This document shows, piece by piece, positions 37,641 through 45,362 of a DNA stretch of 64,000 bases. The notes below the pieces were generated by a model that saw nothing but the letters and a program-made list of their open reading frames with translations, was not told the DNA's origin and searched no databases. The translations under genes and the position numbers were made by a program. Within the stretch, counting starts at the first letter, position 1. Each line of letters begins with the position of its first letter. The stretch is from a virus: the IMG/VR virus record IMGVR_UViG_3300025168_013179, positions 33,787-97,786 of that record. One strand, given 5' to 3'.

Positions 37641-38354
37641 TTAATGTTTACATATTGAAGCTAATTCGATATTTTTATAAAACTCTGCTTTAGCTGAGTC
37701 TTCATCTAAGAATGCTCCTGTTAATTTAGCTGTTTGCATTGAAGCTCCTTGATGTTTGACTCCTCTACAACTAACACAGTTATGAGTAGCTGAAATCATC
37801 ACAGCGACGCCTAAATTACCTTCACATATCTTGTTTACTGCATTATGTATTGCTACAGTAAGTTGTTCTTGTATAGCACCTCTTCTACCGAATTGCTCTA
37901 CGATTCTATTAAGCTTTGATAACCCAACTACTTTACCCTCAGCTGAAGCAATATATGCTATGCTTACATTACCTCCTATAGTTTGATGATGATGGGAACA
38001 CATTGAATGAACTGGTATGTTACTTTCTTGTACTATTCCATCATATCCATCAGAAGGAAAAGCTGTGATCTTATCTAAAGGTTCATATCTTCCTTTCCAT
38101 AAATCATTAACGTAAGCTTTTGCTACTCTCCTAGGAGTATCAGATGAATTTGGATCTCTTCTCCATTCACAGCCTAATTCATCTAAAAATAATCCAAATT
38201 TATGAGCTGCTTTATTAATAATGTCTTCTTTTTCAAATTCAGTTAGTCTTGCTTCTTCACCTTCTATTCTCTGTTTATTATATAGTTGAGTAGATATACC
38301 ATTTGCATACCCAGGCTCTACTAACTCAGTACCTTCTATAAATTTTTTTGCCAT
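37641..38354 (-). CDS. folE: GTP cyclohydrolase I
   Basis: TPRRVAK, SMCSHH, GLSKL, QE and H.C...RG motifs. Confidence 0.95.
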   Translation of the reverse strand: MAKKFIEGTELVEPGYANGISTQLYNKQRIEGEEARLTEFEKEDIINKAAHKFGLFLDELGCEWRRDPNSSDTPRRVAKAYVNDLWKGRYEPLDKITAFPSDGYDGIVQESNIPVHSMCSHHHQTIGGNVSIAYIASAEGKVVGLSKLNRIVEQFGRRGAIQEQLTVAIHNAVNKICEGNLGVAVMISATHNCVSCRGVKHQGASMQTAKLTGAFLDEDSAKAEFYKNIELASICKH

Positions 38355-38388: not shown

Positions 38389-38397
38389 TATTAATAT

Positions 38398-38427
38398 AAT
38401 ATAAGAATAATATTTTAATTATCCAAA
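38398..38427 (-). promoter_or_regulatory. Bacteroidetes-type -33/-7 promoter for folE
   Basis: TTTG-N18-CTTATATT. Confidence 0.7.
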
Positions 38428-39096: not shown

Positions 39097-39697
39097 TACA
39101 ATTTACTTCGTATTCTTCCCATTCTTTAATAGGATCTATATTAGGAAAATAAAAACACTTTGTAGTATTATCATCTAAAAATTTGATATGCTTTTCGAAA
39201 CCTGAAGGTAGTGTGGCTCCGTTAGCCATAACTGAATCTGAAAATATAACGTTAATGGTAATTTCTAAATCTTGTTCATCATCCCATTTACGTTCTTCGG
39301 CTTCTAATAATCTCCATGCCCCTCTATTAAGTTTATCTTTCTGCAATGCGCAGTTAAGGAATGAAAATGTCTGTTTTAAGTTTTCGTTTGAATCTGAGAA
39401 TGTAGCAGCAGGTGCTAAATGACCTTTGTCATAAGGGTAACCTTTGTAATCGTTATTATCAGAAGTGTAGTAATCTTTTTCTGTTCTGAAATTCATAGAA
39501 CCCCTATCTACGTTTTTTGGTCTATCAGTAGATAAATATGTTAGGGTAATTGGTTGTTGTTTACTCTCTGAGTAAAAGACAGTGAAAATAGGTGTCTCAA
39601 CGGTAAGGTCTTCACAACATTCTCTTTTTTCTTGGGATAATCCTTCATTGGAGCTGCCCATTAGTGCTAGTATTACTAGTAATCTAAGTGTTTTCAT
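39089..39697 (-). CDS. Secreted DNA/RNA non-specific endonuclease (NucA-like)
   Basis: Signal peptide; YDKGHLAP and N...Q...LNRG.W..LE motifs. Confidence 0.85.
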   Translation of the reverse strand: MKTLRLLVILALMGSSNEGLSQEKRECCEDLTVETPIFTVFYSESKQQPITLTYLSTDRPKNVDRGSMNFRTEKDYYTSDNNDYKGYPYDKGHLAPAATFSDSNENLKQTFSFLNCALQKDKLNRGAWRLLEAEERKWDDEQDLEITINVIFSDSVMANGATLPSGFEKHIKFLDDNTTKCFYFPNIDPIKEWEEYEVNCND

Positions 39698-39947
39698 AAT
39701 TTAATCCGAAAAATTCGTAATTTTTCTTTACATATTTGTTAGTGCCCTCTTGTTCAATAGCTTCTTCTTCTGAGTCATAGATTGCTTCTACCGGGCATTC
39801 ATAGATGCAAGCTCCGCAGTCAATGCACGTATCAGGATTAATGTACATTGATTCTTCCGCTTCGAGAATACAATCCTCTATTGGACAAACCAGTATACAT
39901 GCACCATCCTTTGTGTCAATGCATTTACTGCCAATGATATGGCTCAT
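39684..39947 (-). CDS. Dicluster Fe-S ferredoxin
   Basis: C.......C...CP and CIDCGAC...CP motifs. Confidence 0.9.
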   Translation of the reverse strand: MSHIIGSKCIDTKDGACILVCPIEDCILEAEESMYINPDTCIDCGACIYECPVEAIYDSEEEAIEQEGTNKYVKKNYEFFGLNYENT

Positions 39948-40156
39948 TAGACTTTAATATACTTCTCTAATATTTCTAATCTTTCGTGTGCTGATGATAA
40001 TAATTTTAATGCTTCTTCACAGTTATCCCAATAGTCTTTTGTGGAATGATCTCCTATTCCAGCAGGGTGAGATGTTAAGATAGTGAAACTTGCTAATGCT
40101 TTTGCTTTATCAGCTTCTGCTTGTTTTTTTAAAAATTGGTAGACGTGTTCTTTCAT
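39947..40156 (-). CDS. Hypothetical phage protein
   Basis: GIGDHS motif; coupled ORF. Confidence 0.65.
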   Translation of the reverse strand: MKEHVYQFLKKQAEADKAKALASFTILTSHPAGIGDHSTKDYWDNCEEALKLLSSAHERLEILEKYIKV

Positions 40157-40171
40157 ACTTAATTGTTTATA

Positions 40172-40963
40172 TTATACTTCTCTTTGATCTTCAAATGCTA
40201 TAATGTGCGGTCTCCAGGTCATTCTATACCCGTTATCCCTAACCCAGTCGAATAGTATTGGGTATGATTTATATAATGCCGCTCTTGAGTCCCCTGCTGG
40301 CATAAACCAGACTTTATCTTTAGGAGCATCAAGAAGGGATATACATTCCATAATTTCCTTTAATGAATTGTTGTCTTTACCGTCCCAAACAGGTTTGAGG
40401 TGGTAATCTGAATGATATTTAATACTTTTCTTAATAGCCTCATAGTTTAATCTAAACCTATTATGCGTTTTAATCATCATCTCTGCTCTCCTGCCCTCTA
40501 ATTTCTGTCCATTAGGTAAAGTAGCTCCATCTTGAGGAACTGAATTACTGAACTTAGGGCTAATACTTAGTAGATTAATAGGGTAATCAGTTTCTAAGTA
40601 ATGAGAACCTTCTGTCTCGATAGTTATAAATATGTCTCTTTCTTTAGCAAAGTGAGTTAATTCGTTAACTAATTTAGGATGCATAGTCGGTGAACCTCCA
40701 GTTAACATCATTTCTGATATTTGAGGATTATCGTCATACATTTTTACTATGTCGTTAAAAGACCATTTGCCTTTTTCCGGATGAATACTTGTATACCAAC
40801 TATCACACCACCCTCCTTCTCCAAAAAAACATCTATGAGTACAGCCAGTAGTTCTAATTACAACTGTAGGGTACCCTGCTCTGGAACCTTCTGACTGTAC
40901 TGCTGTATAAATCTCTACTATCGGTAGATTTTTATTATAATCTTCAATTCGACCCAGGGACAT
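40172..40963 (-). CDS. queE: 7-carboxy-7-deazaguanine synthase (radical SAM)
   Basis: Q.EG..AG.P.V.IR..GC, WCDS, TGG.P, ETEG and SPK motifs. Confidence 0.92.
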   Translation of the reverse strand: MSLGRIEDYNKNLPIVEIYTAVQSEGSRAGYPTVVIRTTGCTHRCFFGEGGWCDSWYTSIHPEKGKWSFNDIVKMYDDNPQISEMMLTGGSPTMHPKLVNELTHFAKERDIFITIETEGSHYLETDYPINLLSISPKFSNSVPQDGATLPNGQKLEGRRAEMMIKTHNRFRLNYEAIKKSIKYHSDYHLKPVWDGKDNNSLKEIMECISLLDAPKDKVWFMPAGDSRAALYKSYPILFDWVRDNGYRMTWRPHIIAFEDQREV

Positions 40964-41456
40964 ATATGGCTGCGTTTTTTCCGTGTTCTCTAAATTCTAC
41001 TTTTGCAATTTTAACTCTTCCTTTTGTTTCCTTAAGCACAAATTTATTTACCTTATTATAAACAAACTCTGCGAATCTTTCTGCTCCTACAGCATCTATA
41101 ACTCTAACTTGAGCTACTCCTACTTCTCCCATTTTTAAAAAAGAATCTTTAAAAGGATCATCATTAGCTACTATAAAGGTATGATCGAACATATAATCAA
41201 ACCAATCTTTAGGAGACTTACCTCCTATTTTAGTCTTTGCTCTTTTCATTCCGCCAAAATCCCATACCCAGTTTCTTTCGTCTAAATCTCCTTCAAACCA
41301 TAATTTAAAAGATATACCGTACCCATGTAAAAATCTACAATGAGTACCATCTGCTTTCCACTGTCTAAATACTGTAGAAAATCCATCAAAAACCTTAGTA
41401 GACAAAAATTTAGGTTTTTGGATTGCTTTTTTTGATAATTTACTATGATATACCAT
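40944..41456 (-). CDS. queD: 6-carboxytetrahydropterin synthase
   Basis: HCRFLHG, DFG, FDH and AE motifs. Confidence 0.9.
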   Translation of the reverse strand: MVYHSKLSKKAIQKPKFLSTKVFDGFSTVFRQWKADGTHCRFLHGYGISFKLWFEGDLDERNWVWDFGGMKRAKTKIGGKSPKDWFDYMFDHTFIVANDDPFKDSFLKMGEVGVAQVRVIDAVGAERFAEFVYNKVNKFVLKETKGRVKIAKVEFREHGKNAAIYVPGSN

Positions 41457-41773
41457 TATACTAGTTCTTCTCCAATTCCTACTAATTCTGCTAAAAATAA
41501 TCCAATAAACCCTATTTCAATCATACCAAAGAAACCAAAAGCACAAGCTGCTAGTCTAATTGCTGATTTAATAAAGCTAATTCTCTGATGTAAAAAAGCA
41601 TCAGGTAAATCTGTGCTAGTTGAGTTTTTAATTTCTACCAATTCTAACTTCAGATCATTAAGCTGAGTTTGATATGTGATATTCTTTGATTGTCGACCTT
41701 CAAGGTCTTGTAATTCGGCAGTTACATCTTTATCGGTGATGTGTATCTGTTCGCCTTTTCTAAATATAGCCAT
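41456..41773 (-). CDS. Hypothetical protein with C-terminal TM hairpin; first gene of the queD-queE unit
   Basis: Coiled coil followed by hydrophobic C-terminus; stop overlaps queD start. Confidence 0.65.
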   Translation of the reverse strand: MAIFRKGEQIHITDKDVTAELQDLEGRQSKNITYQTQLNDLKLELVEIKNSTSTDLPDAFLHQRISFIKSAIRLAACAFGFFGMIEIGFIGLFLAELVGIGEELV

Positions 41774-41806
41774 TTTCCGTGTTTTTAAAGTGGTGCTGTG
41801 ACACTA
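41774..41806 (-). ncRNA. Second preQ1-I riboswitch-like aptamer
   Basis: UAGUG-UCACAGCAC-CACUU-UAAAAACA-CGG-AAA then AUG. Confidence 0.7.
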
Positions 41807-41825
41807 TTGTCTGTTATGTTTAAGT

Positions 41826-41855
41826 AAGATACGATAAATATTTATTATATCCAAA
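41826..41855 (-). promoter_or_regulatory. Bacteroidetes-type -33/-7 promoter for the queD/queE unit
   Basis: TTTG-N18-CGTATCTT. Confidence 0.7.
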
Positions 41856-41858
41856 TAT

Positions 41859-41969
41859 TTAAAAGTTTTTATACGTAAAAGGGTCTCTTTTTTTAAGTTC
41901 TTTTAATTTTTCTTCAAACTCTTTATCTAATTTTTCTTTTAATTTTTTTTCTTTTTCTTCTTCTGTCAT
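41859..41969 (-). CDS. Small Lys/Glu-rich peptide, 36 aa, ending KRDPFTYKNF
   Basis: Hand translation; ATGA-coupled to the carbamoyltransferase. Confidence 0.55.
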   Translation of the reverse strand: MTEEEKEKKLKEKLDKEFEEKLKELKKRDPFTYKNF

Positions 41970-45289: not shown

Positions 45290-45362
45290 AGCCTCTAGTA
45301 GGAGTCGAACCTACAGACTTCTCTTTACAAGTGAGATGCTTTTCCTATTAAGCTTCAGAGGC
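45290..45362 (-). tRNA. tRNA-Thr(UGU), CCA not encoded
   Basis: GCCTCTG/TAGAGGC acceptor stem, CT-TGT-AA anticodon loop, GTAGG-TTCGACT-CCTAC T arm. Confidence 0.85.

Follow-up and report, generated by a model that had tools for sequence, protein, structure and literature searches.

The stretch of DNA analysed in the present study (the window, 64000 nt in length) is part of a 97.8-kb viral record, and all of its genes lie on the minus strand. The gene string of interest begins with orf105 (41773–41456), which encodes a 105-amino-acid protein with no family in Pfam or PHROG, and continues with queD (40944..41456), a member of the 6-pyruvoyl-tetrahydropterin synthase family (PF01242, E = 9.8e-13), and queE (40172..40963), a radical SAM gene whose match to PF04055 (29.3 bits) falls just below the Pfam cut-off of 29.5. 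On the basis of synteny with the phage immuto, in which the matching region is annotated as QueE, we assign the queE product as 7-carboxy-7-deazaguanine synthase. On the 3′ side of queE, the same string carries orf69 (69 amino acids, phrog_1811, function unknown) and a gene for a 4Fe-4S ferredoxin (together at 39684..40156), and further 3′ of the ferredoxin gene come genes for an endonuclease and a phosphoribosyltransferase and then folE; queC is also present in the window (46162–45371). The stop codon of orf105 overlaps the start of queD in the sequence TAATG at 41456, as the earlier note on this DNA had read it, and this arrangement indicates that the two genes are translationally coupled.

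A search of the whole window with Rfam at the gathering threshold gave a tRNA as the sole match, and a tRNA gene lies at 45290–45362 (minus strand, 60.7 bits), between queC and the next ORF. A tRNA match of 38.8 bits in a related contig (L012:2523-2664) has a 73-nt insertion in the anticodon-loop region and may be an intron-containing phage tRNA. Upstream of the orf105 promoter, a 36-amino-acid Lys/Glu-rich ORF (41860–41967, minus strand; MTEEEKEKK...KKRDPFTYKNF) begins on the ATGA that ends a carbamoyltransferase gene, and little of the gap up to the promoter is left outside this ORF. Locus L051 has a similar end, ...RDPFTYKHF, upstream of its orf105 homologue.

Immediately in front of orf105, the minus strand from 41805 to 41778 reads AGUG|UCACAG|CAC|CACU|UUAAAAA|CACG, and the AUG of orf105 starts four bases on; with its flanks (41806–41771), the same strand reads U AGUG UCACAGCAC CACU UUAAAAA CACG GAAA AUG, which agrees in both sequence and position with the earlier note. 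The AGUG strand (41802..41805) pairs with CACU (41789..41792) to form a covarying helix, P1, which has four pairs and not five because U 41806 faces a U. The enclosed loop, UCACAGCAC (41793..41801), holds invariant U, A, G and C columns in our alignment of related copies (A1). By analogy with the preQ1 aptamer of Thermoanaerobacter tengcongensis (Tte), using its sequence (PMC10639078) and its S2 pairs (PMC7641330), L1 would consist of U6 and C7, the P2 5′ strand of A8, C9, A10 and G11, and the remainder of the loop of C and A (L2) followed by a specificity C at 41793. The A-rich tail UUAAAAA (41782..41788) would be L3, with four A columns invariant in A1 and a last A corresponding to Tte A29. 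The following CACG (41778..41781) would provide the P2 3′ strand (C30, A31, C32 and G33 by the same analogy), with the proposed pairs G11–C30 and C9–G33. A GAAA spacer (41777–41774) leads to the orf105 AUG (41773–41771) without a Shine–Dalgarno sequence. The second copy in the window lies in front of folE (38388–38359, minus strand) and reads AUGAG|UCGUAGAAC|CUCAU|AAAAAAA|CAAA, then CUAA, with the AUG at 38354–38352. 

The orf105 hairpin alone is no more stable than a shuffled sequence (z = 0.17). A stability of this kind is usual among class I preQ1 aptamers and is no evidence by itself. In the minimum-energy fold, a small hairpin, GACA-AUAG-UGUC (41800–41813, minus strand), competes with the P1 5′ strand. 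This hairpin could be an anti-P1 element or could lie at the transcript start; because only roughly half or more of the class A relatives have the GAC, we left it out of the proposed switch.

A Bacteroidetes-type promoter was found upstream of the orf105 copy (41824..41855, minus strand), with a −33 TTG at 41854–41852 and a −7 box, TATCTTAC, at 41831–41824, separated by a 20-nt spacer; the promoter lies where the earlier note had placed it. The combination TTG-N19/20-TAnnTT is found upstream of 73 of the 79 distinct motif copies. The spacing is strikingly uniform, with TTG-N20-TAnnTT in 67 of these 73 (in the window at 38396–38426 and 41824–41854, minus strand). The distance from the end of the −7 box to P1 is 18 nt for the orf105 copy, 8 nt for the folE copy and 3–6 nt in a few relatives, and with 18 nt before P1 the aptamer of the orf105 copy should therefore be fully transcribed. 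A 246-nt contig from a marine metatranscriptome, matching 41667–41912 at 100%, spans both promoter and aptamer, and may represent read-through from the upstream gene or DNA carry-over. In several relatives (L080, L054, L027 and others), a GC-rich terminator-like hairpin with a T-run, e.g. GGGGATAGTTGCTTACTATCCCC TTTTTTT, lies approximately 45–75 nt upstream of P1; since this hairpin embeds the −33 TTG of the aptamer promoter, terminator and promoter overlap in many relatives.

How far the element is conserved was examined at several levels. A pattern scan of the 97.8-kb genome found only two sites at which three features are joined, namely the loop pattern, a stem of 4 bp or more and a coding-strand A-rich tail. 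The bare 9-mer UCRYAGNAC shows no enrichment in the window (seven matches compared with 4.4 expected), and A-rich leaders are the norm before the genes of this phage, so that the tail is only partly informative; by itself, the site would carry little weight. The motif is found nearly invariant, and at the same positions, in more than 100 related phage contigs from IMG/VR. In approximately 40 of 80 IMG/VR loci with a QueD relative, a nearly invariant AGUGUCGUAGCACCACUUUAAAAACAC stands before the orf105 homologue, and the N-terminal halves of the homologues behind it diverge to only 30–60% identity. A degenerate pattern scan of IMG/VR gave at least 144 matches. Among the matches listed, 125 of 144 (87%) have a compatible P1, where approximately 14% would be expected by chance, and 114 of these 125 helix-compatible instances lie on the coding strand 12–20 nt before pathway genes, namely orf105 (62), folE (46), queD (3) and queE (3). 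The same pattern in cellular genomes gave helix-compatible sites in only 14 of the 120 matches listed (12%, the chance level), and these lay within ORFs or had no clear gene downstream. The preQ1-like cellular matches L101, L106, L126, L147 and L205 were set aside, as they lay within ORFs or lacked a que context and had no Rfam support.

A covariance model (R1) was built from A1, which comprises 36 distinct copies. In five near-complete relatives (156–191 kb), R1 found one or two sites each, all in the que cluster, and in the present genome it gave strong matches at the two sites only (39.5 bits for the folE copy). One other, weak match, outside the window (G000:C1:5405-5449, minus strand, 24.5 bits; AGUC-loop-GACU, UUAAAAACAAAU), falls in a small ORF, has an unrelated loop and was judged to be a chance match. 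In 151 sampled Bacteroidia genomes, for which part of the candidates was scored, R1 found no credible counterpart; its one match was antisense within a 766-amino-acid ORF and was rejected as chance. The Rfam model of class I preQ1 riboswitches, RF00522, gave no match in the same 151 genomes, again for the part of the candidates that was scored. Within what was searched, the element is found in phages only. An outlier copy in front of folE in two loci (L054:5094-5110 and L055:5094-5110) differs in its loop, UUGAAGCAC (U in place of C7 and A in place of U9), and has the tail ACAAAACAAG; it may represent an aptamer that has degenerated or been retuned.

The helix P1 forms in all 36 distinct aligned sequences, and in two of the four pairs both partners vary (A–U/U–A/G–C and U–A/A–U). 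The covariation score was reached by none of 500 column shuffles, and slid registers collapse. Six different helices are found (AGUG, GGUG, UGAG, UGUG, GGAG and AUGAG), and one genome can carry two different stems, as here, which argues for an RNA helix over a protein-bound DNA palindrome. The difference in P1 between the two copies, to which the earlier note had drawn attention, is real (AGUG/CACU compared with AUGAG/CUCAU), but the flanking U–U leaves four pairs in the orf105 copy and not five. The columns invariant in A1 are the G–C pair at the top of P1, i.e. the predicted pocket floor, together with U6, A10, G11, the specificity C and the A-run; in the numbering of the alignment, C18, T10 and A25–A28 are the specificity C, the first loop U and the A residues of L3. 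C7 and the A of the ‘AC’ before the P1 3′ strand are nearly invariant, and A17 is found in at least 90% of the A1 sequences, with a CCC variant (L021 and L035) as the sole exception.

For P2, the constancy of the C after the A-run is no independent evidence because the pattern used for collection required that C; the loop G is invariant, and the pair G11–C30, which never varies, is uninformative for the same reason. The A next to this C is also invariant and lay outside the selection pattern. Pair 9–33 forms in 49 of the 61 distinct copies and fails in 12, a count of 49 being reached by 23 of 5000 shuffles, in which phylogeny was uncontrolled, and C9 always occurs together with G33 (7 of 7). 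The predicted P2 extends only a little beyond G11–C30 and is in part non-canonical there; L3 has a length of 7 nt in 52 of the 61 copies. The earlier note had predicted a change in P2 from U–A to C–G between the two copies. This change holds as U9–A33 in the folE copy compared with C9–G33 in the orf105 copy, but relatives do not keep the register proposed there for folE, in which the loop UAG pairs with a distal CUA; what they share is the Tte-like register, with CAAA directly after the A-run. To our knowledge, a 4-bp P1 combined with a 3-nt L2 has no solved precedent.

The closest known relative of the element is the translational type II preQ1-I aptamer of Tte, CUGGG UCGCAG UAAC CCCAG UUAACAAAA CAAGG (PMC10639078), with which a base-by-base mapping can be made; the Bacillus subtilis queC aptamer is also of type II, and RF00522 covers class I. 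In this mapping, the Tte segments (C)UGGG, UAAC and UUAACAAAA correspond to the phage segments AGUG, CAC and UUAAAAA respectively, and UCGCAG corresponds to UCACAG in the orf105 copy and UCGUAG in most relatives (phage consensus UCRYAG). The Tte tail CAAG corresponds to CACG in the orf105 copy and CAAA in the folE copy. The upper stem of Tte consists of G11–C30, G8·A31, A10·A32 and C9–G33 (PMC7641330), and the phage tail CA(A/C)G mirrors Tte C30, A31, A32 and G33, with the proposed pairs G11–C30 and C9–G33. The phage element would have the same H-type pseudoknot layout as Tte, with a hairpin, an A-rich L3 and a short predicted P2 back to the loop; both have UC at the start of the loop, ‘AC’ before the P1 3′ strand, an A-run ending in A–C, a G–C pair under the pocket and the start codon of a preQ1-pathway gene adjoining. 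Within class I, the specificity cytosine stands directly before the P1 3′ strand, and the base next to it on the 5′ side is A in type II and U in type I. The edge of the ligand is read by a U of L1 and by the A that ends L3, and a G–C pair that tops P1 forms the pocket floor (PMC11625349). The phage motif keeps, base for base, all of the ligand-pocket positions of type II preQ1-I aptamers.

There are also clear differences. Compared with Tte, the phage element has one pair fewer in P1, one nucleotide fewer in L2 and two fewer in L3; compared with type II in general, it is approximately 28 nt in length rather than 33–34, with a P1 of four rather than five pairs, an L2 of 3 rather than 4–6 nt and an L3 of 7 rather than 8–9 nt. 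It stands before genes for phage DNA hypermodification and not genes for tRNA queuosine, and, unlike type II, it has no Shine–Dalgarno sequence to hide because the type of host is blind to it. Type I and type III aptamers (those of Carnobacterium antarcticum and E. coli) share the class I fold and the α-mode contacts through U, C and A (PMC11625349). However, in type I the P1 3′ strand follows ‘UC’, where the phage motif has ‘AC’, and there are also a UU motif and two bound ligands. In type III the 5′ side carries UU and an AAGG Shine–Dalgarno sequence is paired, where the phage motif has ‘UC’ and no such sequence.

We also compared the element with the curated model of the class. RF00522 gave no match to the orf105–queD copy at E ≤ 10, in either a 201-nt search or a search of the genome, and none in ten relatives; the folE copy scored 14 bits (E = 1.4) against a gathering threshold of 39 bits. 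Thus neither copy reaches the threshold in the covariance search that the earlier note had suggested. A further match at 40115–40156 (13.2 bits) lies at the start of orf69 and was rejected as chance. Conversely, R1 recognizes at most one of approximately 30 true Bacilli preQ1-I sites, and that one weakly (15 bits). At the level of profiles the two sets are thus separate, and the phage set is a distinct sequence family sharing the architecture. In its favour as a class I element, there is a covariation-backed 5′ P1 with a G–C floor (of 4 bp compared with the usual 5), a specificity C before the P1 3′ strand together with the first loop U and the A at the end of L3, and a position directly before orf105–queD, folE, queD or queE (114 of the 125 helix-compatible instances among the matches listed). 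The ‘AC’ rather than ‘UC’ before the P1 3′ strand is the mark of type II, but no Shine–Dalgarno sequence is sequestered within P2 or the tail, as none is conserved between the aptamer and the AUG. On these features we class the element as preQ1-I-like (type II-like), and not as a curated member of RF00522. A search for a known phage preQ1 riboswitch in the que cluster of Streptococcus phage Dp-1 gave no Rfam match, and we found no description of the motif in the literature searched on phage preQ1 riboswitches; by the comparisons given above, it is probably a novel, more compact form of an established class of riboswitch.

The nearest cultured relatives of the phage are Flavobacterium phage immuto and the Cellulophaga phiST group. 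In immuto, which has the enzymes from FolE to QueF as well as DpdA3 and DpdN, all G is replaced by formyl-preQ1, and DpdN may act on either the base or DNA (PMC10516641). In Cellulophaga phage phiST, which has no QueC, the route ends at CDG/deazaguanine (PMC10516641). Immuto and the window share queD, queE, the phosphoribosyltransferase gene and folE as the same set in the same order, with 73% DNA identity over the que genes. DpdA, the formyltransferase and queF are named in the immuto annotation and the earlier note only, and queC is present in the window. The phage probably carries the full FolE–QueD–QueE–QueC–QueF route to a preQ1-derived DNA base. A folE copy of the motif is present in immuto (GGAG UCGUAGAAC CUCC AUAAAAAC), and no copy was found before its orf105–queD unit or in phiST. 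The paper describing these phages mentions no regulatory RNA, the strings ‘regulat’ and ‘riboswitch’ each occurring 0 times (PMC10516641). QueC is encoded in 47 of the 50 motif-family contigs checked, and its presence was discarded as a correlate of the motif, as it fails to separate motif-bearing from motif-less relatives.

Taken together, these data point to a translational OFF riboswitch of preQ1-I (type II) architecture, approximately 28 nt in length, in the 5′ leader of orf105–queD–queE(–orf69–ferredoxin) of a Flavobacteriia-type phage, and we consider this reading likely. The type of ligand (preQ1 or similar), the formation of the pseudoknot and the direction of regulation are what we infer from sequence. 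An SD-like 4-mer stands upstream of only 5 of the 112 ORFs of the genome, and its leaders consist of 46–54% A; in Bacteroidia, ribosomes do not use the Shine–Dalgarno sequence, and initiation, which depends on leaders that are open and rich in A, varies with mRNA structure and with the A residues upstream (PMC6847099). As Shine–Dalgarno sites are nearly absent, a pseudoknot would block initiation by folding the A-rich leader, and, as it would end four bases before the AUG and consume the A-rich stretch, ligand binding should turn translation off. Under the proposed mechanism, transcription would start approximately 10–14 nt before P1. As long as no ligand is bound, both the hairpin, weak with its 4 bp, and the A-rich tail would stay open, and the SD-blind host ribosome would load on to this unstructured A-rich leader. 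Accumulating preQ1 or preQ0 would pair with the specificity C (41793), be read by the loop U (41801) and the last tail A (41782), and stack between the top G–C pair of P1 and a second G–C pair, that of G 41796 in the loop with C 41781 in the tail. The tail would then lie in the groove of P1 and CACG would pair back to the loop (C9–G33), giving an H-type pseudoknot that ends 4 nt before the AUG and blocks initiation. If the folE twin acts alike, the first three steps of the pathway would be throttled together, as we propose. The earlier note's suggestion of a second preQ1-like aptamer, one showing covariation relative to that of folE, gains computational support from these data, since the element is conserved and strand-specific, shows compensatory changes in P1 and keeps its pocket; the regulon of two units proposed there, folE and queD–queE, fits the almost exclusive position of the motif before 7-deazaguanine genes among the matches listed. 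This marine Flavobacterium-type phage probably senses and throttles the synthesis of the modified guanine placed in its DNA.

The same fold and action might, however, serve a natural ligand which is another free 7-deazapurine, either preQ0 or, if DpdN precedes insertion, the formylated preQ1 base. The shortened L2 and P1 would reshape the pocket, and their lengths differ from those of all characterized preQ1-I types and place the element outside RF00522; the QueC found in 47 of 50 relatives means that preQ0 is made, and the end product in immuto is formyl-preQ1, with the base or DNA as the substrate of DpdN (PMC10516641). Against this, the positions that read preQ1 in class I aptamers (PMC11625349) are all unchanged, and we regard a ligand of this kind as unlikely. 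Reportedly, class I aptamers bind preQ0 too (a result credited to Roth et al., 2007), and the distinction between preQ1 and preQ0 may thus be one of degree.

It is more improbable that the conserved leader hairpin senses no metabolite and instead serves as the operator of an RNA-binding protein from phage or host, or in the stability or processing of the pathway transcripts. Operators bound by proteins likewise typically combine an invariant loop with a covarying stem, and the Rfam threshold is not reached, but the invariant positions agree one for one with the preQ1-I pocket and A-rich L3 (PMC7641330), the motif stands almost exclusively before 7-deazaguanine genes among the matches listed, and no candidate RNA-binding gene was seen among the neighbouring genes examined. 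A DNA operator is also unlikely, as one genome carries different stems and the element is asymmetric and strand-specific. Lastly, chance resemblance in an AT-rich intergenic region, for which the unenriched loop 9-mer and the commonness of A-rich leaders might speak, is refuted: more than 100 copies are conserved before the same genes, and their helices show compensatory changes.

If the translational riboswitch set out above is correct, a virus uses a metabolite-sensing RNA over a pathway that rewrites its own DNA chemistry, and translational riboswitch action occurs in a lineage whose ribosomes ignore the Shine–Dalgarno sequence. The preQ1-I aptamers, at 33–34 nt, are described as being among the smallest riboswitch folds (PMC11625349), and a functional one of 28 nt would show that natural RNAs can be selective for a metabolite at a smaller size than known so far. 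A bolder reading, which we offer only tentatively, is that this is the smallest natural riboswitch aptamer yet (approximately 28 nt), confined to phages of SD-blind Bacteroidia, which acts free of any Shine–Dalgarno sequence by folding an A-rich ribosome landing zone and is perhaps tuned to preQ0 or formyl-preQ1; it would then be a phage-evolved metabolite sensor governing the replacement of G throughout a genome. Since the curated Rfam model misses the motif, current annotation pipelines are blind to it. As both immuto and its Flavobacterium host are cultured and a folE copy is present, the idea is directly testable.

The first gene behind the aptamer, orf105, was suggested in the earlier note to be a pathway component, for example in precursor transport. 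Its family comprises 237 homologues, all unnamed and without a Pfam or PHROG model, and an orf105 homologue stands before queD in most relatives, whether the aptamer is present or absent. The gene is tightly linked to queD across phages, and its association with the pathway is real. The part of the suggestion that concerns transport finds no support, as there is no family to place the protein in and structure prediction gives a C-terminus with a single long hydrophobic helix (pLDDT approximately 80). The C-terminal 50 residues are nearly invariant in 26 diverse homologues and the N-terminus varies; the conserved end (41456–41620, minus strand) reads LPDA.LHQRISFIKSAIRL.ACAFGFFG..EIGFIGLFLAE.VGIGEELV, a degree of conservation that, from the alignment, is unusual for a simple membrane anchor. 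Two buried glutamates lie within the hydrophobic helix of orf105.
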